The translations under genes were made by a program, and so were the position numbers. The notes under the pieces were generated by a model that was not told the origin of the DNA, ran no database searches, and saw nothing but the letters and a program-made list of their open reading frames with translations. Positions 1-22,351 of a stretch of DNA of 53,427 nucleotides are shown here, one piece after another; position 1 is the first letter of the stretch; the number at the start of each line of letters is the position of its first letter. The stretch lies in the sequence record SRR2962707_3662; one strand, 5' to 3'.

Positions 1-32
1 GCGCAGCCCGGTAGCGCACTTGTCTGGGGGGC
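1..32 (+). repeat. attL: truncated 5' half of tRNA-Pro(GGG)
   Basis: GCGCAGCCCGGTAGCGCACTTGTCTGGGGGGC gives the D-arm plus anticodon loop (CT-GGG-GG). The sequence then diverges from a tRNA: no complete anticodon stem and no T-arm. Confidence 0.85.
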
Positions 33-63: not shown

Positions 64-603
64 TCAATCGTTTACGGCGCGCCGGTCTGTAGTTGCAGGC
101 GCCGGCGTGGCGGTCGATGTTGCCGGTGGGACATTGGCGCTGTGGAATTGCTCCGCCTCTTCAATGAATTTCTTCAGCTTTCCGCAGTAGAAAAACCATT
201 CCAGCCTGTGATGGCAGGCCTCAAATTCCCGGTGAAGCTTGTGCTCAAGGTCTGTGCCGCCTCTGAACCAGAACAGCAGCTCGGGCGCTGTTGGTGCTGA
301 TCCGCTCAGCTCGGCGAGGCGTCGCTTTGGATCGACCGAGTGCCCGATCTTCACAAAATGGCCAGCCCTGACGATGTATACGTATCCCCGTCTTGCCTGC
401 ATGGCGGAGGGGAGAGAGCGGCGAGCGCGCCTGATAATCGAGCGGAAGAACGAGTTGGACGCAAAGACCTCCTGCCGGAGCAAGTCTTCGACTTTCTGTG
501 CGTCCACGGGATCGTCAGTTCCGGTTGAGCCGTGATATCTGTTGCCGTCGACCCGGAAATCGTAGCTGTAATGTCGGCAGTCCGACCGTTTGAACACGCT
601 CAT
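64..603 (-). CDS. Fusion of an integrase-like N-terminal arm-binding domain and a T5orf172/MUG113 (GIY-YIG) nuclease domain
   Basis: N-terminal YSYDFRVDGNRYHGSTG resembles Int YSYEFRLHGRRFSGSTG. C-terminal GYVYIV..VKIGHS..PKRRL..LE..LH..F....EWF is T5orf172-like. Start overlaps the int stop (ATGA). Confidence 0.8.
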   Translation of the reverse strand: MSVFKRSDCRHYSYDFRVDGNRYHGSTGTDDPVDAQKVEDLLRQEVFASNSFFRSIIRRARRSLPSAMQARRGYVYIVRAGHFVKIGHSVDPKRRLAELSGSAPTAPELLFWFRGGTDLEHKLHREFEACHHRLEWFFYCGKLKKFIEEAEQFHSANVPPATSTATPAPATTDRRAVND

Positions 604-1793
604 GCCTGTTCTTCTCCCGTCTTCCGTTTGCGGACTAAAGCCAGAGCCTCTGCCATCTCGTCCGGCGTCGCGCGAACGCTCGCCGCCTCCATGGCGCGGC
701 GGATGTCGTCGTCCTGCACATGGGCGTATTTCGTCGTCGTCTCAATGTCCGCGTGGCCCAGGAGCTGCTGTGCGGTGCGGATACCCGCCGCCCGCGTGAT
801 CCGGCTGCCTGCGGTGTGGCGGGTGTCGTGGAAGCGGAAGTCGGTGACGCCTGAGGCGGGGAGCTTCCTCCGCGCCACGGATTTCATGCCGCTTTCCGTG
901 ACCGGATACCGCTTGCCGCGCTCGATCTTCTCCGTCACCCAGTTTCCTACGTCGTCCTTCGACCGGATCGTGCGGGTCCGCGTCGCGACATAGGTGAAGA
1001 CGAATTCCGGGTGATTGCCGAGAAGTCGGCGGAAGAGATCGAAGAGGGCGGCAGACATGGGAATGAAGCGGCGCCTTCCGCCCTTGCCCGTGACCTCGAA
1101 CCGGCGGTTGATGAAATCCACCTTCTCCCAGCGGAGCGCCCATCGGTCGCCCACGAGCTCGCATCGGCGGCAGCCGGCGATCATGGTGGCGTCTAGCACG
1201 TCGCGATAGCCTTCCGGCACGGCGGCGCGCAGAGCCTCCTCCTCAGCCGCACTCGCCTCGCGGACCCGCTCCTGGGGCTCTTCGAGCCAGTGGAGCTTCC
1301 ATTCAACATCGGCCGTTTCGGCCTTCCACACCTTACGCGCACGCGTCAGCACGTCGCGTAGCGGCTCCGTCGCCGTGCGGTTCACCGTCGCGGGCGCGAC
1401 GAAGCCCTTGTCCTTCCGGCCCCACTTCTTCTCGCCTCGCCGCTTTGCGACCATAGAGGCGACTTCCGCATTGCCGATCGTTGCGATGGGTTTCGACTTG
1501 CCGAAGTAATCGAGAAGCCAGTCGAGGCAGGCGAGGCGCGTTGTTGCGTCTCGGCGGCGGCTGCCGACCTCAAGCCAGTGGCGCGCACAGGCCTGTTCCA
1601 GCGTGAGCCGTGGCCCCTGCAGCGCCTTTTCAGCCGCGATCAGAAGAGCGGCTTCCTCGCGCCTGGCGCGCTCTACGGCTTCCGCTTCCCGGCGCGCCGT
1701 GCATCCAGTGCTACCTGAAAATCGGCGACCGTGAAGCCTGAATTCGTAGGAATAGACGCCTTGTTTCGCGTCTCCGCGGATATAGACGGGCAT
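600..1793 (-). CDS. int: Tyrosine integrase
   Basis: Catalytic motifs GCRRCEL, KGG, HDTRH and LLGHADIETTTKY; adjacent to att. Confidence 0.97.
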   Translation of the reverse strand: MPVYIRGDAKQGVYSYEFRLHGRRFSGSTGCTARREAEAVERARREEAALLIAAEKALQGPRLTLEQACARHWLEVGSRRRDATTRLACLDWLLDYFGKSKPIATIGNAEVASMVAKRRGEKKWGRKDKGFVAPATVNRTATEPLRDVLTRARKVWKAETADVEWKLHWLEEPQERVREASAAEEEALRAAVPEGYRDVLDATMIAGCRRCELVGDRWALRWEKVDFINRRFEVTGKGGRRRFIPMSAALFDLFRRLLGNHPEFVFTYVATRTRTIRSKDDVGNWVTEKIERGKRYPVTESGMKSVARRKLPASGVTDFRFHDTRHTAGSRITRAAGIRTAQQLLGHADIETTTKYAHVQDDDIRRAMEAASVRATPDEMAEALALVRKRKTGEEQA

Positions 1794-1999
1794 GCGACCT
1801 TCTTGTTTTTCCGCTTCCAGGCCTCGATGTCGGCGGGATCGTAACGAGGCGTTTCGCGCTTCCCGCCGCGACCGATGTTGATGTAGGGGATGTCGCCCGC
1901 CTTGCGCATGGCAGCGAGCGTCTTGATCCCGCAGCCGAGTTCACGGGCTGCTTCGGCCGGTGTCAAGGGTTCCTGGCCTTTGCCGGGGGTGGAGGTCAC
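1673..1999 (-). CDS. xis: Excisionase (HTH_17/MerR-like)
   Basis: LTPAEAARELGCGIKTL..GDIPYINIG..RYDPADIEAW; overlaps the int 5' end. Confidence 0.85.
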   Translation of the reverse strand: MTSTPGKGQEPLTPAEAARELGCGIKTLAAMRKAGDIPYINIGRGGKRETPRYDPADIEAWKRKNKKVACPSISAETRNKASIPTNSGFTVADFQVALDARRAGKRKP

Positions 2000-3642: not shown

Positions 3643-3798
3643 AACGAATTCACGTTCCGCTTCAACCGGCGGTTCTATCCGTTCAACACCTTCCGCTCGC
3701 TGCTCGGCATCGGCAGCGACGCAGAGCCACCCACCTATCGGGCTCTTTATGACGGGGGCTGGGAGCATCCGACTATCGGCCATCGACCCCTCCGCTGA
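3643..3798 (+). mobile_element. IS1595-family transposase C-terminal remnant
   Basis: NEFTFRFNRRFYPFNTFRSLLGI..PTY..LY.G.W.HP matches the ISXO2/IS1595 C-terminal signature as recalled. Confidence 0.7.
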
Positions 3799-4549
3799 GA
3801 CCGAGAAACCCGGCGGTTTCTTCGCAGAAGGGTGAACACTCGATGGTCGGCTCATCCTGTTGCCGCCCAGTCTCGGGGCGGAGTTCATCAAGGAAAATGC
3901 GCACCCCGTCTTGGCGAACGAGACGTGCGCCCAATTCCCTCGATAGCCGCGCCATTCGCCAAAACACGTCCGGAAAATGGCGGCGTATCATGTTCCAGTA
4001 ACCTGCGCCGCCCTTCGGGCAGCCGATACAGTTGTTGTTCATGAAGCCGAGCAGATACATCGCAGGCAGAACTATTCCGGCGGCGCGAACCAGCGCATGG
4101 CAGTCCGGCTTTCGAAGCTTTGCCTCTATCAGCGGGAGTTCAGCGGCGATTTCGAAATTGGTTTCGACAAACCGCTTTGCGCGCCCTTCCTCTTCCGCCG
4201 TGTACCCAAAGATATGAATGTCGTCTGGGCGCTGAAATTCGTAGCGAACCGCCTTCTTCAGCAATCCGGTACAAGGCGCTCCCTTTGGCCCCGCGATGAA
4301 TTTTCGCTTTTCCCACACGGCCCACGTGTCGACGTAATCCGGGCTGCGAAGTTCGATGATTGGTGCGCCAAACCACTTCGAACATTCAGACGCAAAACGG
4401 TCGTTGTCGGGGTGCTCGCTGTCTATACAGATACGCGCAACCACGACCTCATGCGTGCCGCCATACTTCTTCAGCGCGAGCTTCGTCGCGACAGCCGAGG
4501 CATCGCCGCACGAGAACCAGCAAATGACGCGAGGGTCAGACATCAACAT
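3773..4549 (-). CDS. PAPS-reductase-like / adenine nucleotide alpha-hydrolase family protein
   Basis: PP-loop-like WFSCGDASAVA, EHPDNDRF, APCT..LKK, GF.NNNCIGC.KGG.GYWN and C-terminal ECSPFCE. Confidence 0.85.
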   Translation of the reverse strand: MLMSDPRVICWFSCGDASAVATKLALKKYGGTHEVVVARICIDSEHPDNDRFASECSKWFGAPIIELRSPDYVDTWAVWEKRKFIAGPKGAPCTGLLKKAVRYEFQRPDDIHIFGYTAEEEGRAKRFVETNFEIAAELPLIEAKLRKPDCHALVRAAGIVLPAMYLLGFMNNNCIGCPKGGAGYWNMIRRHFPDVFWRMARLSRELGARLVRQDGVRIFLDELRPETGRQQDEPTIECSPFCEETAGFLGLSGGVDGR

Positions 4550-4592
4550 TTAGTCCCTGTGGGTGTGAACCGGATAGGCACGAAAGTTTCGA

Positions 4593-4688
4593 TCATGCGA
4601 CGAACCCTCCGATGAACAGGCAGACCGCAGCGAACACGACGAAGCCGGCGAGCGCCTTGAGATCGTCGCGGGTGACGAGATCGCGCAT
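4593..4688 (-). CDS. Small membrane peptide (31 aa)
   Basis: MRDLVTRDDLKALAGFVVFAAVCLFIGGFVA; TGATG coupling to the upstream gene. Confidence 0.5.
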   Translation of the reverse strand: MRDLVTRDDLKALAGFVVFAAVCLFIGGFVA

Positions 4689-5086
4689 CAGAAGTCGACC
4701 TTTCGCGTTTCGATAATCACGGTGTCGCGCTCACGGCGGACGCCGACGATGGCTGTGCCGCTGCAATCTTCGGGCTGGTCCACCCATAGCGGTGTTTCTC
4801 CGCTCATTTGGAAGTAGCCACCCTTCCAACCCTGATAGGTGTTGCCGATCGCTTTTTCGAGTTCGGTCGCGACGCTGAATGCACTCGGCCAGTGCCGGTC
4901 CGGCAGCGACTTGTCAGACCATCCGAGCGCACAATGGTCGAAATAACCGCGGTAGCTTCGGACCACGGTCGGGCGCAAGTAGCAGAAATCGAACTGCACA
5001 TCGGCTTTCGGCGGCGCCTTGCGGATGGCTTCCATGACGGATTCGAGTGACGCCGTGCCATACGCGGTCATCGTCAGTTCACTCAT
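4688..5086 (-). CDS. Conserved hypothetical phage protein
   Basis: SYRGY..GWKGG.F.M..TPLW motif; coupled ORF. Confidence 0.75.
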   Translation of the reverse strand: MSELTMTAYGTASLESVMEAIRKAPPKADVQFDFCYLRPTVVRSYRGYFDHCALGWSDKSLPDRHWPSAFSVATELEKAIGNTYQGWKGGYFQMSGETPLWVDQPEDCSGTAIVGVRRERDTVIIETRKVDF

Positions 5087-5583
5087 CGATCATCCCCCGC
5101 CGGGTCCATGACGGGATAGTCGCGCAGCAGCAGTGTGGCGCGTTCGTCGAGGATCTTGAGGAAGAGCGTCATGCGCTCGGCGATGCTGCGTTCGTCGGTC
5201 TGGCCCTTGCGGCGCGGGACGATGCTTTCCGGCAGCATTGCGTGCGTCGCCTCAATTTCGAGGCGCATCCGCTCGCGGCTGGCGCCGACGTTGAACAGGA
5301 ATTCGTCGACGGGCGGGAAGGCGGGCGCCTGGGTCCGTTTCGCGGGATGCATGTGAACGGCACGCTGGCCGTCGCCCAGGGTCTCGCACGCCTTCGTCCT
5401 CGCTTCCGGGGAGGCGTAGGGCAGTTGGTGCTGCGCGGCTGGTGTGCCGCGAGATGCGGCACTGGCGGCGGCCCTCGCAATCGCGTACTGGCTTCCGCCC
5501 GCGAGCCGGAAGCGATCGCAGGCTTCCCGGAAGGCTTCATCGCCGCTGATCGCAGTGGCTTGCATCTCGACGGTTGAGGTCAT
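5083..5583 (-). CDS. Hypothetical phage protein
   Basis: Start MTSTVEM overlaps the upstream stop (ATGA). Confidence 0.65.
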   Translation of the reverse strand: MTSTVEMQATAISGDEAFREACDRFRLAGGSQYAIARAAASAASRGTPAAQHQLPYASPEARTKACETLGDGQRAVHMHPAKRTQAPAFPPVDEFLFNVGASRERMRLEIEATHAMLPESIVPRRKGQTDERSIAERMTLFLKILDERATLLLRDYPVMDPAGDDR

Positions 5584-15571: not shown

Positions 15572-15975
15572 TGCGAGTGACCGCCGCAGACCGGGACGAC
15601 GCGACGTTCGCGATCTTCGTCAAGGCCGCCTGCGAAGGCGTGCGATGCCCGAAGAACGACGATCTTCCCGCAGCGGCGGGCACGGGACGCCTCGCGCGGG
15701 CCGGCCGCATCCGCGTCGAGGTCTACGAGCACAACTACCGCGTTGTCGAAATCCGCGCGGGCGACCACACGGGCAAGCGGACGGCGGAGCATCCCTCCGG
15801 GCGCAAGCCTTACCGCGTCATCGACGAGAAAGGCGACCAGTGGGTGAGCCGGACGGTGGTGGGCGCACTGCCAACAGTTCGGCATGTTCCCCGCAAGAGA
15901 GACACGGACGCGCTGGCCCCGCCGAGCGTCACGCTGCCGAGGGTGAAGTTTATTGAAGGCAAGGAACGAACATGA
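15571..15975 (+). CDS. Hypothetical phage protein
   Basis: TGATG coupling. Confidence 0.7.
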   Translation: MRVTAADRDDATFAIFVKAACEGVRCPKNDDLPAAAGTGRLARAGRIRVEVYEHNYRVVEIRAGDHTGKRTAEHPSGRKPYRVIDEKGDQWVSRTVVGALPTVRHVPRKRDTDALAPPSVTLPRVKFIEGKERT

Positions 15976-18026
15976 ATTTTGCCGCCCCCATTGCGCTTCC
16001 CGGCGAATTCCCGGACAGGAAATTCCTCGTTGCCGATCTCTTCTGCGGTGCGGGCGGGTTCTCGACCAGCTTCCAGCATGCGCTCGCGCAGCTCGGGATC
16101 GAGATGGAGCTTGTCTGTGTCAACCACTGGGGCAGGGCGATAGAGACGCACCGGGCGAACCATCCGCATGCACGGCATTATTGCGAGGACATCGCCAGCG
16201 TGCGGCCGAGCATCGTGGTGCCGGAAGGCCGCCTCGACGCGCTGACCGCTTCGCCCTCCTGCACGCATCATTCGGTGGCGCGCGGCGGCAAGCCGACATC
16301 CGACCAGCAGCGCGCGGACCCGTGGCACATCATCACCTGGCTGACCGAGCTCGACGTCACGCGGATCGCGATTGAGAATGTCTGGGAGTTCACGAGCTGG
16401 GGGCCGGTGGACCCGGAGACGCGCCGCCCGATACCCGAACGACGGGGCGAGTATTTCGAGGCATGGATCAACGTCATCCGCAGCCTCGGCTACAAACCCG
16501 AATGGCGGAAGGTGAATGCCGCCGATTTCGGCGAGGCGCAGACGCGCGTCCGCTTCCTGCTGATGGCGCGCAAGGATGGCAAGGAGATCGTCTGGCCCGC
16601 GCCGACGCATGCGAAGGTCGTGGCCGCGCAGGCCTCGCTTCTCCCCGACCTGAAACCGTGGCGCCCGGCGCGCGAGATCATCGACTGGACGCTGAAGGGT
16701 AAATCGATCCTCGGACGGCCCATCCCGCTGGCGCCAAAGACGCTGGCGCGCATCCTTGCGGGCGCGCTGAAGTTCGGCTGGCCGATGCCGTTCGTGCGCG
16801 TGATCCTGCGCGCGATCGATGAATCTCTCCGCTACCACATCCGGCGCAATTTCAGCCTGCGGCACGAGCCCGGGAAGAAGGGCGCCACGGCGAAGGCGAA
16901 GGCGCGGGACTACGCAGGCGCGCTGCGTCATTTCCGCGAACACCCGCTGCAGTTCGGCGGGCGCATGCCGGGTGCCGAACCCATGCTCGTCACGCTCCGC
17001 AACAATGCCGACGGCCGCCCGATCGGCTGTCCCGTCCCGGCGCTGGCGGCGAACGGCCAGCATCTCGCGCTGGCGGAGCCTGTGTTCATCAACGGCCGCA
17101 AGGGCAACAAGGCGGCGCCGGTTTCGGATGCGCCGATTCCGGCTCTCGATACTAAGGGCGGCGTCTGGCTCGCCGAGCCGATGGTGCTTTCGCAGCACGG
17201 TTCGGGCGCGGCCCGGCCGGTGAGCGCGCCGGGACCGACGATCACGACGGGCGGGGCCGCTTCGGAAAAGCGGCAGGGCTGTGCCAGGCCGATGCTTGTC
17301 GAGCCCGTGGTGATCAGAACCAACATGCACGGCCGTAAATCGCCCGGCGCTCGTGGAGCGAAAGACCCACTGATGACCATCACTACGGATGGCGGGATAG
17401 GCATGGCGGCTCCCTTCATGCTTTCGCGCCATGCGGACGGCGCACCCCGCTCGACCGAACAGCCCTCGCCCACACAGGTGGCCAAGCACAGCACCTGCCT
17501 CGTCACCGCCTATTACGGCGCGAATGACGGATGCAAGCCGGTGGACGATCCGCTGGACACGGTCGTCTCCAAGGACCGCTTCGGGCTGGTGGTGCCGGTG
17601 ACGCATGCGGGCGGCAGCAACAGAGCCATCAATCCGGACGACACACCTCTGCCGACCGCGACGGCGGCGAACCGCGGCGAGCTTGCCTTCATTGCCGCGC
17701 AATTCGGCGAGCGGGAAGGGCAGGCGCCACGGGTCCACGATCTCGGACAGCCGTCCCCCTCGGTCACGGCCACGGGCCACATGAACCTCGTTGAGGCCAT
17801 CGGCGAGGCGGCCGGTGACGAGGGCTGCGACGTGCTCTTCCGCATGTTCGAGACGCATGAACTCGCGGCCGCGATGGGGATGGACGGATATCTCTTCACC
17901 GGCACGAAGACGGAAATCGTCAAGCAGATCGGCAACGGCGTCAGCGAGAAAAAGATGCGCGCGCACCTTCTCGCGCTCTGCGCGGATGCCGCGCCGGGTG
18001 CGCCGTTTCAACAGGCAGCGGATTAG
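15972..18026 (+). CDS. C5 cytosine DNA methyltransferase with a repeat-expanded variable region
   Basis: DLFCGAGG (motif I), SPSC (IV), ENV (VI), QTRVR (VIII), KQIGNGV (X). Confidence 0.93.
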   Translation: MNFAAPIALPGEFPDRKFLVADLFCGAGGFSTSFQHALAQLGIEMELVCVNHWGRAIETHRANHPHARHYCEDIASVRPSIVVPEGRLDALTASPSCTHHSVARGGKPTSDQQRADPWHIITWLTELDVTRIAIENVWEFTSWGPVDPETRRPIPERRGEYFEAWINVIRSLGYKPEWRKVNAADFGEAQTRVRFLLMARKDGKEIVWPAPTHAKVVAAQASLLPDLKPWRPAREIIDWTLKGKSILGRPIPLAPKTLARILAGALKFGWPMPFVRVILRAIDESLRYHIRRNFSLRHEPGKKGATAKAKARDYAGALRHFREHPLQFGGRMPGAEPMLVTLRNNADGRPIGCPVPALAANGQHLALAEPVFINGRKGNKAAPVSDAPIPALDTKGGVWLAEPMVLSQHGSGAARPVSAPGPTITTGGAASEKRQGCARPMLVEPVVIRTNMHGRKSPGARGAKDPLMTITTDGGIGMAAPFMLSRHADGAPRSTEQPSPTQVAKHSTCLVTAYYGANDGCKPVDDPLDTVVSKDRFGLVVPVTHAGGSNRAINPDDTPLPTATAANRGELAFIAAQFGEREGQAPRVHDLGQPSPSVTATGHMNLVEAIGEAAGDEGCDVLFRMFETHELAAAMGMDGYLFTGTKTEIVKQIGNGVSEKKMRAHLLALCADAAPGAPFQQAAD

Positions 18027-18242: not shown

Positions 18243-18689
18243 ATGACGGAATTTGGCTGGATATTCGGACGCGGCATCAAGGGATATCTACGGCGCGAGC
18301 GAGTGCGCGTGGCACTGCGAAGGGTGAAGAGGTTCTTCGTCCCAATGGAGATGTGCGGTGAATGTGAGCACTTCTTCGAGCGTGCTGATCCAAGGGCTCA
18401 TGTCCCGCGCCGCCACAGAATCGACATGTCGCCACTTTGCCCGCTATGCGCCGAGCGGACGCTTCGCGGAACCGAATGCTGGGCTCTCTGGAACGATTGC
18501 CAGGGAATATTCGGCGACACGATCAGATGGGACCGCCCCGCGGCTGCAGCACTTCTGACCGGGCCTTACGAAGATTGCAAGTTGATCCCGGTCCGTGCCT
18601 ATGCCGTTGAAGACGAGGAAGAAGTCTGGCTTCGGACGGCGCGAGCAGTCGCGCAGGAAGCGATAGCTGAGAGGGAGAGGGGTGCATGA
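18243..18689 (+). CDS. Hypothetical Zn-finger protein
   Basis: CGEC...CPLC; coupled to the next gene. Confidence 0.6.
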   Translation: MTEFGWIFGRGIKGYLRRERVRVALRRVKRFFVPMEMCGECEHFFERADPRAHVPRRHRIDMSPLCPLCAERTLRGTECWALWNDCQGIFGDTIRWDRPAAAALLTGPYEDCKLIPVRAYAVEDEEEVWLRTARAVAQEAIAERERGA

Positions 18690-21600
18690 CCGCGCTCTCC
18701 TATCGCGAATTCCTCGAAAGCAAGATCCGGCTGGCGGAGCAGGAGGGTTTTGCCCTCGCACCCGCCGCCACGAACCCGGCATTGAAGCCGCATGCGGGCG
18801 CCGCCGTGCAGTGGGCCTTGCGCGGCGGGCGGCGGGCGGTCTTTGCCGCCTTCGGCCTGCACAAGACGAGCATGCAGATCGAGATGATGAGGCTCGCTGG
18901 CGTTGAGCTTCAGGGACCGACGCTGATCGTGCTGCCGCTCGGCGTGCGGCAGGAATTCACCCGCGACGCGCAGCTCTGGTTCACGGGCGAACATGCCGTC
19001 CGCCTGAAGTTCATCCGCCGGCCCGACGAGATCGAGCACGAGTGCTGGCAGGAAGGCGCGGCGTCCGGCTACACGATCCATCTCACGAATTACGAGACGG
19101 TGCGGGACGGGAAGCTCGACCCGAAGCTCTTCCGGGCGGCATCGCTCGACGAGGCCTCGGTGCTGCGCGGCTTCGGAGGCTCGAAGACGTTCCGCGAATT
19201 CATGCGGCTCTTCGACGGCATGAAATACAAGTTCGTGGCGACCGCGACGCCGAGCCCCAACGACTATATCGAACTGCTGGCCTATGCCGCCTTCCTCGAA
19301 GTGATGGATGTCGGCGAGGCGAAGGCACAGCCGCTAGACGCAAAGGTGCTGACACCGAGCGGATGGAAACCGATGGGGGACATGAAGGTCGGCAGTCGCG
19401 TTATTGCCGCCGACGGGTCGACAACAAGGGTGATCGGTGTCTACCCGCAGGGCGAGCGCCAGATCTATCGCGTCGGTTTTTCCGATGGCTCGGCTACTGA
19501 ATGCGACGGCGATCACCTCTGGCTGACACAGACGCAGTATGAGCGCAACAACGAGCGCCGATATCGTCAGCGTAACCCCTTTGGCGATCGGATAGGGGCA
19601 TTCTGTCAGGCGCGCGCCACACGAGAGATCGCGGCCACACTGCTTACTGATCGTTCCGGCAAGAACCACACCATTCCAATGGTTCAGCCGGTCCGCTTTC
19701 ATCGGCGAGCCGTCCCGGTTGACCCGTGGTTTCTCGGCTTCCTGTTGGGAGACGCGTGTCTCCGAGATACCAGCATCATCATATCTTCGGGTGACGCATG
19801 GATTATAGATCGAGCCACCAAATGCCTGCCGGAAGGCTTTCACCTCAGAAGGACCAGTGCGGCTTCCGGTTGTGACTATAGCGTCAGTAGTACAGGCAAC
19901 AAGGGAGGAAGGGGACCGGGCTCTAACCCCTTGCTCACGTCACTTAGGAAGCTGGGCGTGCTCGGCAAGAGGGCATGGGAAAAGCGCATTCCCGACGTCT
20001 ATCTTGTCAACTCGATCGATATCCGGCTGGCAATCTTGCAGGGGCTCATGGATGCCGATGGCACCGTTTGCAGAAACGGGCAGATGGTGCGCCTTTCCAC
20101 GTCTTCTGCGGGGCTGGCTCAGGATGTTCAGGCCATTGTGCAATCGCTCGGCGGAACTGCACCTATACGCCGGTGCGCCACGGCCAAGAGAGATGCCTAC
20201 CGTGTCCTCATAAATCTGCCCAACGGGATGAGTGCATTCTCACTTCCTCGCAAGGCGGTGCGCTTGAAGGCTCGGACGAAATATCCGGCCCGCCGTTACA
20301 TCACCTCGGTTGAAACGGTGGGGAGAAAACAGGCGCAGTGTATCGCGATTGAGCACCCGAGTCGCCTCTATGTGACCGATGATTTTGTCGTCACTCACAA
20401 CACCCGCTTCTTCAAGCGCAATTCCGAGAAGGCGGACGAGCTCGTCCTGCATCCCCACAAGGAAGCGGAATTCTGGTTGTGGGTGGCGAGCTGGGCGCTG
20501 TTCATCGAGAAGCCCTCCGATCTCGGCTTTTCGGACGAGGGATATGTGCTGCCCGATCTCGATGTGGTCTGGCACGAAATCCCATCCGACCATGCAACGG
20601 CGGGATATGCGCGCGACGGTCAGGCGCTGCTGATGCGCAGCACGGCGGCCGGCGTTCAGCACGCAGCGCGCGAGAAGCGGGACAGCCTCGACGCGCGGCT
20701 TGCGAAGCTGATGGAGATACGCGCGGCCGAGCCGGACGAGCACCGGATCATCTGGCACGACCTCGAAGATGAGCGCCGCGCGCTGGAAAAGGCGATCCCG
20801 GATGTCGTGACCGTCTACGGCTCGCAGGATCTGGACGAGCGCGAGCGGCGCATCATCGGTTTCTCGGACGGCGACTTCACCGAGCTTGCGACAAAGCCGC
20901 GCATCGCCGGGTCCGGCTGCAATTTCCAGCGTCATTGCCGCCGTGAGGTGTTCCTCGGCATCGGCTTCAAGTTCAACGACATGATCCAGGCCATTCACCG
21001 CATCCAGCGCTTCGGGCAGATGCATGAATGCCGGGTGGACCTGATCTACACCGAGGCCGAGCGGCCGGTGCGCCAGAGCATCGAGGCGAAATGGGCGCGG
21101 CACAACGAGCAGAGGAAGATCATGACGGAGATCGTCAGGAAATACGGCCTTTCGGAAGCCGCGATGGCGGAGACGCTGGCGCGCAGCATGGGAACCGAGC
21201 GCATCGAGGTCGCGGGCGAGGGCTACCGTCTCGTCAACGAGGATTGCGTCGAAGAGACGCGCCGGATGGCGGCGGACAGCATCGGCCTCATCGTCACGTC
21301 GATTCCGTTCTCGACCCAGTACGAGTATACACCGAGCTTCAACGATTTCGGCCACACGGACGACGACGCGCATTTCTGGCGGCAGATGGACTATCTGACA
21401 CCCGAGCTGCTGCGCGTGCTGGAGCCGGGCCGTGTCGCGGCCGTGCATGTGAAGGATCGCGTCACGCCGGGCGGCATCAACGGCTTCGGCTTCCAGACGG
21501 TATCGCCCTTCTCCGACGATTGCGTCGCGCATTTCCGCAAGCACGGCTTCGCCTTCCTCGCACGCAAGACGATCGTCACGGACGTGGTGCGCGAGAATAA

Positions 21601-22351
21601 CCAGACCTATCGCCTCGGCTGGAGCGAGCAATGCAAGGACGGCAGCCGCATGGGCGCGGGCATGCCGGAATACCTGCTGCTGTTCCGCAAGCCGCCGACG
21701 GACCGGAGCAACGGCTATGCCGACACACCGGTTGTGAAGGCGAAGCGCGAGTGGAAGGGCGATCACTGGACGAATGAGGGCTACAGCCGCGCTCGCTGGC
21801 AGGTCGACGCGCATGGTTTCTCGCGCTCGAACGGCAACCGGCACCTGAAGGCGGAGGAATTGCTGACGCTGGAGGCCGCCGAGGTGTTCCGGGCCTACCG
21901 GGCCTTCTCGCATTCCGCCGTCTACGATTTCGAACATCACGTAAAGATCGGCGAGACGCTGGAGACGCACGGCATGCTGCCGCCGACCTTCATGCTCTTG
22001 CCGCCGCAGAGCTGGCACCCGGACGTGTGGACCGACGTCACGCGCATGCTGACGCTCAACGGCAGCCAGCATGCGAAGGGCAAGGAAATGCATCTTTGTC
22101 CGCTTCAGTTCGACATCGTGGACCGCGCCATCGCGCAATTCACCGTGCCGGGCGAGACCGTGTTCGACCCGTTCGCGGGGCTCATGACGGTGCCGTATCG
22201 CGCCGTGAAGATGGGCCGCAAGGCGGTGGGTGTCGAACTCAACCCCGGCTATTTCCTCGACGGCTGTGCCTATGTCGAAGCGGCCGCGCGCGAGATGGCG
22301 ACGCCTTCGCTGTTCGACCTGGCCGGGATCGCGGAGGAAGACGCGGCATGA
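18686..22351 (+). CDS. SNF2-like helicase / N4-N6 DNA methyltransferase fusion containing an intein
   Basis: FGLHKT, LDEAS, TATPSPND, QAIHRIQRFGQ (SF2 motifs); IVTSIPF and FDPFAG (amino-MTase motifs). Confidence 0.9.
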   Translation: MTALSYREFLESKIRLAEQEGFALAPAATNPALKPHAGAAVQWALRGGRRAVFAAFGLHKTSMQIEMMRLAGVELQGPTLIVLPLGVRQEFTRDAQLWFTGEHAVRLKFIRRPDEIEHECWQEGAASGYTIHLTNYETVRDGKLDPKLFRAASLDEASVLRGFGGSKTFREFMRLFDGMKYKFVATATPSPNDYIELLAYAAFLEVMDVGEAKAQPLDAKVLTPSGWKPMGDMKVGSRVIAADGSTTRVIGVYPQGERQIYRVGFSDGSATECDGDHLWLTQTQYERNNERRYRQRNPFGDRIGAFCQARATREIAATLLTDRSGKNHTIPMVQPVRFHRRAVPVDPWFLGFLLGDACLRDTSIIISSGDAWIIDRATKCLPEGFHLRRTSAASGCDYSVSSTGNKGGRGPGSNPLLTSLRKLGVLGKRAWEKRIPDVYLVNSIDIRLAILQGLMDADGTVCRNGQMVRLSTSSAGLAQDVQAIVQSLGGTAPIRRCATAKRDAYRVLINLPNGMSAFSLPRKAVRLKARTKYPARRYITSVETVGRKQAQCIAIEHPSRLYVTDDFVVTHNTRFFKRNSEKADELVLHPHKEAEFWLWVASWALFIEKPSDLGFSDEGYVLPDLDVVWHEIPSDHATAGYARDGQALLMRSTAAGVQHAAREKRDSLDARLAKLMEIRAAEPDEHRIIWHDLEDERRALEKAIPDVVTVYGSQDLDERERRIIGFSDGDFTELATKPRIAGSGCNFQRHCRREVFLGIGFKFNDMIQAIHRIQRFGQMHECRVDLIYTEAERPVRQSIEAKWARHNEQRKIMTEIVRKYGLSEAAMAETLARSMGTERIEVAGEGYRLVNEDCVEETRRMAADSIGLIVTSIPFSTQYEYTPSFNDFGHTDDDAHFWRQMDYLTPELLRVLEPGRVAAVHVKDRVTPGGINGFGFQTVSPFSDDCVAHFRKHGFAFLARKTIVTDVVRENNQTYRLGWSEQCKDGSRMGAGMPEYLLLFRKPPTDRSNGYADTPVVKAKREWKGDHWTNEGYSRARWQVDAHGFSRSNGNRHLKAEELLTLEAAEVFRAYRAFSHSAVYDFEHHVKIGETLETHGMLPPTFMLLPPQSWHPDVWTDVTRMLTLNGSQHAKGKEMHLCPLQFDIVDRAIAQFTVPGETVFDPFAGLMTVPYRAVKMGRKAVGVELNPGYFLDGCAYVEAAAREMATPSLFDLAGIAEEDAA
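19325..20401 (+). mobile_element. Class-3 intein with LAGLIDADG homing endonuclease (359 aa)
   Basis: Starts AQPLDAKVLTP and ends VVTHN followed by T. Contains HLW and QCI, and LAGLIDADG motifs FLGFLLGDA and ILQGLMDADG. Confidence 0.92.

Follow-up and report, generated by a model that had tools for sequence, protein, structure and literature searches.

At the left end of a 53,427-nucleotide stretch of DNA from sequence record SRR2962707_3662 (hereafter the window, meaning this whole stretch at its full length), a minus-strand operon contains an excisionase-like gene, a tyrosine integrase gene (int) and an open reading frame that is the subject of this study. We call it the fusion, because a predicted DNA-binding domain of the type found at integrase N-termini is followed in it by a nuclease-type domain of the T5orf172 family. 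Its coordinates and those of the surrounding features are collected in Table 1. An earlier note on this DNA, made from the sequence alone, had proposed that the fusion could be a nuclease or competitor directed to the arms of the phage attachment (att) site. That the start of the fusion overlaps the stop of int in an ATGA, as the note had read, is confirmed by the coordinates; start/stop overlaps of this kind are linked with translational coupling. A scan of positions 1-2200 for sigma-70 promoters and terminators found neither a promoter-like nor a terminator-like site on the minus strand. Four further loci carry close members of the same fusion family (47-52% identity), and they come from a Rhizobiales isolate (L001, genome G001), a Hyphomicrobiales metagenome-assembled genome (L002), a metagenome (L038) and an IMG/VR contig (L007). 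The reading frame is open in all five loci.

Table 1. Features of the window, SRR2962707_3662, with positions counted from its first letter
Feature	Position	Strand	Description
Orphan 5' part of tRNA-Pro(GGG)	1..30	+	Runs from the D arm to the anticodon loop, truncated by the start of the window; forms the bacterial side of the prophage junction (attL-like)
Anticodon-loop heptamer CTGGGGG	24..30	+	tRNA identity stops directly after it; presumed crossover region
Fusion gene	64..603	-	179 aa; an integrase-type N-terminal domain, then a helical linker, a T5orf172 (GIY-YIG superfamily) domain and a disordered tail
GTCCCAC, candidate integrase arm-type motif	126..132	-	In the 3' coding tail of the fusion, 102 nt from the junction; tentative
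T5orf172/MUG113 nuclease-type domain	154..387	-	Fusion residues 73-150
Arm-type-like predicted DNA-binding domain	463..603	-	Fusion residues 1-47; strands 3-5, 12-18 and 21-26; helix from 32
ATGA overlap	600..603	-	Fusion ATG (603-601) over int TGA (602-600)
Tyrosine integrase (int)	600..1793	-	397 aa; Pfam Phage_integrase 7.3e-21; phrog_1 (integrase) 4.2e-35
Excisionase-like helix-turn-helix protein	1673..1999	-	Lies upstream of int, with which it overlaps; matches phrog_66 (excisionase and transcriptional regulator) at 1.6e-9
PAPS-reductase-like gene	3773..4549	-	Encoded by the prophage
DNA methyltransferase	15972..18026	+	684 aa; encoded by the prophage
Protein with PHROG matches of primase/helicase type and methyltransferase type	18686..22351	+	1221 aa; encoded by the prophage

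The first ~45 residues of the fusion resemble the N-terminus of the adjacent integrase, as the earlier note had observed. When the two proteins were compared by BLASTP, residues 1-45 of the fusion aligned to residues 1-47 of int with 20/47 identical positions (43%) and an E-value of 5e-8 for this single comparison, and fusions compared with their own neighbouring integrase at other loci gave 1e-14 (L038) and 3e-10 (L007). Identity of the fusions to the N-termini of the same integrase lineage is 43-53%. Homologs of the window integrase are held by 21 of 401 genomes of the same order, at 22 loci and with 31-48% identity over the aligned part, and a profile of the fusion matches the first ~50 residues of 21 of these 22 integrases. 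An alignment of the five fusions with 15 integrases shows that the sheet-forming positions are common to both and that M1, Y12, F16, R22, G25, T27 and A35 are invariant. There is one systematic difference: at the start of the helix the integrases have basic residues, whereas the five fusions have acidic or neutral ones.

The earlier note had asked whether the N-terminus folds as an arm-binding domain at all, and the AlphaFold model is compatible with such a fold. The mean pLDDT is 80.9 overall and 83.3 over residues 1-60. In the predicted layout, residues 1-48 form a three-stranded sheet with a helix and residues 51-62 a second helix; a hinge of low confidence leads to an alpha/beta domain (73-157), and the tail is disordered. 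The N-domain is modelled as beta-beta-beta-alpha with pLDDT above 90. Structural matches for this domain have integrase arm domains and AP2 domains at the top, all with low scores, as is expected because the domains are only 50-80 residues long; in a Foldseek search with the N-domain alone, 3jtz ranked first and the P4-like arm domain 3rmp third (E 0.26-0.28), while the whole model gave no Foldseek match at E ≤ 0.001. In Pfam, the N-terminal parts of both the fusion and the neighbouring int match no family at E up to 1. The modelled structure is thus consistent with an arm domain without being decisive. The decisive evidence is that of sequence, by which we judge the N-domain to be a true paralog of the integrase N-terminal domain.

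Is the N-domain a fresh copy of the adjacent gene? Identities between a fusion and its own integrase (20/46, 23/48 and 24/48) are no higher than those with other integrases (18-24/48), and they are lower than those between fusions (22-29/48). No pair-specific co-variation between the N-domain of a fusion and the integrase next to it was seen in the three pairs, which suggests that the duplication is old. Within the close family, the sequences indicate that two paralogs have diverged in parallel since that duplication. An 85-residue open frame in another genome (G187:C11:14608-14742) matches the integrase-type N-domain alone (profile positions 4-48), and may be a stand-alone arm-domain protein or a fragment.

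A linker of ~25 residues connects the arm domain to the T5orf172 domain. The note's description of the rest of the protein as T5orf172/MUG113-like holds, as both Pfam models score above their cut-offs: MUG113 (PF13455) with 36.6 bits against 22.3 over residues 84-137, and T5orf172 (PF10544) with 31.6 bits against 20 over residues 73-137. Matches in PHROGs are to T5orf172-type families and to one family annotated as endonuclease. In an alignment of 21 sequences with 25-87% identity to the query, Y76, K85-I86-G87, R95, E120, H124 and E135-W136 are invariant, with G20, A35, P104 and F137 close to invariant. A sequence search of the PDB with the nuclease domain gave weak matches to two enzymes of the GIY-YIG type, Hpy188I (E 0.049) and T4 endonuclease II (E 0.29), and in the former the Y...KIGHS...R segment of the fusion aligns with the same segment of the enzyme. 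We take this Tyr...Lys-Ile-Gly-His...Arg segment to hold the catalytic residues of Hpy188I, with presumed counterparts among the named catalytic residues of I-TevI and of the phage nuclease Odn; E135 is assigned as the metal-binding glutamate by motif order only. The invariant tyrosine, lysine, arginine and glutamate are compatible with an active nuclease, and the domain looks catalytically competent.

Next to an integrase, and beginning like one, the fusion could be regarded as the non-functional, decaying remnant of an old integrase gene, which the earlier note had also considered in the form of a one-off remnant. The distribution of the fusion contradicts this. A word-index homolog search found two relatives of equal length with both domains, at 87% and 46% identity. 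When a profile of these relatives was used for a full HMMER search, 23,405 proteins were returned with E up to 1e-3, but almost all of them match the T5orf172 part only. Domain HMMs found both domains in the same order in 24 of 153 proteins, namely the query, the two close relatives and 21 of the 150 best cluster representatives at 50% identity; 18 of these 21 had served to build the HMMs, and P0022, P0025 and P0053 had not. Given the open frames in all five loci, homologs down to 25% identity with motifs conserved in both domains, and the confident structural model, we rejected the remnant explanation as having next to no probability.

The fusion is nevertheless rare. G001 is its sole carrier among ~800 genomes (order and phylum samples, 401 each), and two partial candidates in these samples (L029 and L019) are without the N-domain by HMM. 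Among 50,697 records of isolated phages, none reached 80% coverage with any of four fusion queries, and viral scans with the distant fusions P0011, P0007 and P0014 turned up either N-termini of integrases or genes with T5orf172 alone. The distant fusions resemble other integrase sub-lineages; the P0011 N-domain shares 49-74% identity with the N-terminal parts of integrases of 346-396 residues.

The earlier note had placed the gene beside an attachment site, and this location was borne out. The first 30 nucleotides of the window have no mismatch to a 30-nt pattern, from the 5' half of the tRNA-Pro gene, that marks the orphan and intact copies in five related genomes, and the stop codon of the fusion lies 33 nt from the junction where tRNA identity ends. 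In each of the five genomes (G001, G002, G333, G366 and G400; pattern copies L077-L086) the pattern occurs exactly twice, once in an intact tRNA-Pro(ggg) called by ARAGORN and once as an orphan at the int end of the element. The two copies, of which the intact tRNA marks the opposite end of the prophage, are on the same strand, 41.4 kb apart in G001 and 61.7 kb apart in G366. ARAGORN called no tRNA in the window because only half of a tRNA gene is there, and Rfam gave no match for the half tRNAs. The junction falls at an identical point in the window, L001, L002, L038, L045, L046, L047 and L054. Since each genome has one intact and one orphan copy, the phage attachment site (attP) would carry the 5' half of the tRNA; the prophage lineage appears to cross over in the anticodon loop of tRNA-Pro(GGG) and to leave the orphan 5' half beside int. 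Elements that integrate into tRNA genes usually carry the 3' part, and the orientation found here therefore looks unusual.

The position of the fusion relative to this junction is conserved. In all five loci it is the terminal prophage gene, with its 3' end facing a broken tRNA-Pro on the opposite strand, and the distances from its stop codon to the end of tRNA identity are 33, 10, 33, 41 and 44 nt. In four loci it is a tRNA-Pro(GGG) broken right after CTGGGGG, and in L007 a tRNA-Pro(UGG) broken after the variable loop. An integrase or an integrase remnant adjoins the fusion in every case. The two genes are co-oriented and overlap or abut in the window, in L002 (14-nt overlap) and in L038 (3-nt gap). 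In L001 (positions 4507-5543 of the locus, in genome G001), where the overlap is 4 nt, the co-oriented int is cut to its last 87 alignable residues and the fusion is intact; the L001 element itself spans ~41 kb between the two tRNA-Pro copies. In L007 the int is on the far side of the tRNA fragment and the fusion is convergent. The spacer between int and tRNA in L007 (1740-2100) is homologous to the spacer of L049, where the tRNA-Pro(tgg) is intact, and repeated GTGGCAC/GTGGGAC motifs are found in both. From this homology we read L007 as an attP-like arrangement, in which int would lie on one arm and the fusion on the other. For comparison, a related integrase lies within 1.5 kb in only 1 of 28 T5orf172-only loci from the same genome samples. 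As the five fusion loci represent one orthologous family, they are an instance of conserved synteny and not five independent events. We regard the fusion as a conserved accessory gene placed at the extreme edge of attP in one lineage of temperate phages that integrate at tRNA-Pro and have Hyphomicrobiales/Rhizobiales-like hosts.

That the gene is optional came from related integrase loci without it. None of the 22 related integrase loci described above carries a fusion. In L045, L046, L047 and L054, int ends 37, 10, 10 and 42 nt from the orphan tRNA-Pro junction, so that the position is empty in these four loci and occupied in the window, L001, L002 and L038. The integrases of occupied and empty sites are 41-48% identical over the part aligned by BLAST, and no near-isogenic pair was thus seen. 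These empty sites indicate that the fusion is an optional gene, which part of the lineage carries inserted between int and the att core. Its composition also differs from that of its surroundings: the fusion gene is 2.4-7.7 GC points below the locus average in all five loci, and compared with the neighbouring int it is 3-7 points lower in GC and 5-10 points lower in GC at third codon positions (58.1% against 65.4% GC in the window).

The lowered GC would also suit an ordinary free-standing T5orf172 homing endonuclease or moron, whose AP2/Int-like domain reads some other sequence and whose place at int and att reflects the usual build-up of accessory genes at prophage ends. According to the accessible text of a survey of such genes, T5orf172 genes pair with many DNA-binding modules, and AP2-type domains occur in HNH homing endonucleases (10.1101/2023.03.23.533998). 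On a tree of T5orf172 C-domains, which is poorly resolved, the fusion label is scattered, with 16 changes, at least 4 of them forced by supported branches, against a shuffled mean of 22.5; this scatter fits the modular domain swapping that the survey describes for T5orf172 homing endonucleases. Moreover, at another element edge (L025, 235-1887) an excisionase-like gene and a 330-residue integrase of a different subfamily are followed by an overlapping 155-residue T5orf172 gene without arm domain and then by host murA, showing that genes other than the fusion can bring a T5orf172 domain to the place behind int at the end of a prophage. However, the identity of the fusions to integrase N-termini of their own lineage goes well beyond the fold-level similarity of AP2 domains, other integrases are matched at their N-termini by distant fusions (P0011 being one) with 49-74% identity, and the position relative to the core is invariant in 5/5 loci. 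We consider an ordinary homing endonuclease with an unrelated target unlikely.

Candidate arm-type sites were sought in the 160 nt on the prophage side of the junction in nine loci; both the repeats and the motif GT[CG]CC[AG]C were chosen post hoc. A tandem 9-mer repeat (at least 8/9 matching, period 10-14) is present in 4 of the 9 loci, a number reached in 0 of 500 shuffles. Three of the repeats are perfect, with a period of 12, and start 80-86 nt from the junction; they lie at the 3' end of the fusion in L002 and at the 3' end of int in the empty sites L045 and L046. At a distance of 62-104 nt from the junction, and always on one and the same strand, the motif GT[CG]CC[AG]C occurs in the window, L001, L007 (two copies), L045 (two copies) and L046. 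A further occurrence is on the second arm of L007, and L049 has three copies in the stretch that separates int from its intact tRNA. Near the junctions the motif reaches 2.16 per kb, compared with 0.75 per kb in the rest of the loci. Exact GTCCCAC occurs once in the 53-kb window, at the site listed in Table 1; the degenerate motif is not enriched window-wide, and exact k-mer enrichment across the att arms did not single out the candidate. Within the window, the evidence for an arm-type motif is therefore thin. Should these be true arm sites, they would tentatively be located in the 3' coding tail of the gene next to the core, be it int or the fusion, and the poorly conserved, disordered tail of the fusion would then be shaped in part by constraint at the DNA level.

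Candidate binding sites in the fusion's own 3' end beside the core would also suit a protein that does not cut. The fusion might be a recombination regulator, an arm-site competitor or architectural factor made together with Int that biases integration against excision or blocks re-integration and whose T5orf172 domain serves only to contact DNA or to dimerise. It shares its N-domain with Int and is coupled to int in four of the five loci. There is also a precedent in CapR for the domestication, as a repressor, of the DNA-binding module of a T5orf172 homing gene (10.1101/2020.11.28.402263). As far as the available text of that report goes, though, what CapR retained is the DNA-binding part and not the T5orf172 domain, whereas here the catalytic-type residues are invariant over 21 diverged sequences. 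Nor is the fusion an excisionase or recombination directionality factor of the usual type, a small helix-turn-helix or winged-helix protein beside int: its architecture differs, and the operon already has a separate excisionase-like gene. Relatives with empty sites manage without the fusion, and in L001 it is intact although the truncated int cannot recombine, which argues against a role limited to aiding that integrase. For these reasons a purely regulatory role seems to us improbable. A structure-specific nuclease, recruited to the intasome and tethered at the arm sites to process branched or stalled recombination intermediates in the manner of Slx1, is a further alternative that we regard as very unlikely.

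We favour, at somewhat less than an even chance and by analogy with known chimeric nucleases, the reading that the fusion protein is a nuclease guided to integrase arm-type sites and acting as a homing or anti-rival gene. Produced together with int, its N-domain would dock on the same arm-type repeats that are read by Int, or on similar ones, and the tethered T5orf172 nuclease would cut the DNA nearby. The likely roles would be homing into, or destruction of, related phages or elements that have these arm sites and lack the gene. Such a role fits the existence of relatives with empty sites, the shift of the gene's composition towards AT and its location directly against both a conserved gene and the att core. 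It also has two difficulties: the arms of the phage's own att site should carry the target sites, which raises the question of self-immunity, and the helix of the N-domain begins with a charge unlike that of the integrases, which could change its specificity or its partners. A more specific form of this proposal, which we consider somewhat less probable, is that an integrase arm module has been turned into a nuclease guide on its own attP arm and homes into, or destroys, the att arms of competitors at the same tRNA-Pro, and that insertion of the gene confers self-immunity by altering the spacing between arm site and cut site. Of the interpretation given in the earlier note, the components have stood up, namely the paralogous N-domain, the T5orf172 domain with conserved residues, the coupling to int, the adjacency to att and the conservation of the fusion; binding to arm sites, cleavage, the target and the biological role are what we infer from them.

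If the protein does read arm sites, the principle of making a nuclease from a copied DNA-binding module would extend from replication origins to attachment sites. It would also point to competition for integration sites as a selective force. Under the more specific proposal, recombination arm sites would be a battleground between phages, and the fusion would represent a natural 'integrase-guided nuclease'. A compact natural pair of proteins, Int and nuclease, with a common DNA-reading domain would also be useful for studying how arm-site specificity evolves. The analysis further flags a class of prophage-edge genes that are annotated only as 'GIY-YIG nuclease family protein'. The remainder of the window is a complete-looking siphovirus-type prophage, with a CI-like repressor, replication genes, methyltransferases, terminase, portal, protease, capsid and tape measure; PADLOC gave weak matches only (PD-Lambda-1, 0.0012; PDC-S57, 0.017).

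Several known systems share part of this design. In tyrosine integrases such as lambda Int (residues 1-64), HPI/P4-like Int and Tn916 Int, the arm-binding domain is followed by core-binding and catalytic domains, whereas in the fusion a nuclease follows. In I-TevI, the order of the domains is opposite to that of the fusion. Free-standing homing endonucleases of the T5orf172 family and of the GIY-YIG type (in ICP1 and T5-like phages; I-TevI and the Seg proteins of T4) have the same two-module plan of nuclease and DNA-binding part, presence/absence polymorphism at a fixed site by a conserved gene, and a composition unlike that of their neighbours. The HNH homing endonucleases with an AP2 domain (IPA-HNH and relatives) differ in having HNH in place of GIY-YIG and in their domain order, and the domain of the fusion goes beyond an AP2-like fold in being a sequence-level paralog of integrase N-termini. 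Swapping of DNA-binding modules is known among T5orf172 homing endonuclease genes, and the partners named in the accessible text of the survey are CapR-type zinc fingers, DUF723, DUF4397 and RepA_N, with no mention of an integrase arm domain seen in that text (10.1101/2023.03.23.533998). Papers from the Seed laboratory, in the text available, also name Bro-N and KilA-N as T5orf172 partners, and AP2 for HNH enzymes. Full-text searches of the literature returned no paper that describes an integrase arm domain fused to a GIY-YIG or T5orf172 nuclease, although supplementary material such as the 2023 survey's domain tables could be relevant here. T5orf172-like segments were also seen inside a gene of phage Mx8 annotated 'replication initiation protein' (p19; AF396866.1, 9578-9865) and inside a gene of a Mycolicibacterium phage annotated 'DnaD-like helicase loader' (PP947710.1, 64551-64811).

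The closest precedent for the architecture, judged by analogy, is one that the earlier note did not name: Odn, the origin-directed nuclease (gp88) of Vibrio phage ICP1, in which a T5orf172 nuclease is joined to a domain similar to the RepA_N of a satellite (PMC8263062). As described in the accessible text of that paper, Odn cuts the origin of the PLE satellite only when the RepA-binding iterons are present, and an E180A variant was built as a predicted catalytic null and used as a control. In Odn and its homologs in E. coli phages, as in the fusion, the T5orf172 domain is joined to a DNA-binding domain homologous to that of another site-specific protein, and the segments in Mx8 and the Mycolicibacterium phage may be further fusions of this style with site-specific replication proteins. 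The logic we propose for the fusion is also that of Odn, where specificity is copied to cut the cognate site and the DNA-binding part is modular and swappable (PMC8263062; 10.1101/2023.03.23.533998). The two differ in the borrowed module, which is RepA_N in Odn and the integrase N-terminal domain in the fusion, and in the donor, which for Odn resides in a rival satellite, while the closest paralog of the fusion belongs to the phage's own integrase lineage, being the neighbouring gene in the same genome. In addition, the fusion lies on the att edge of a temperate prophage, and its nuclease activity is predicted from sequence. Chimeric T5orf172 nucleases with a borrowed DNA-binding module are known, and the integrase arm domain would be a new module among them.
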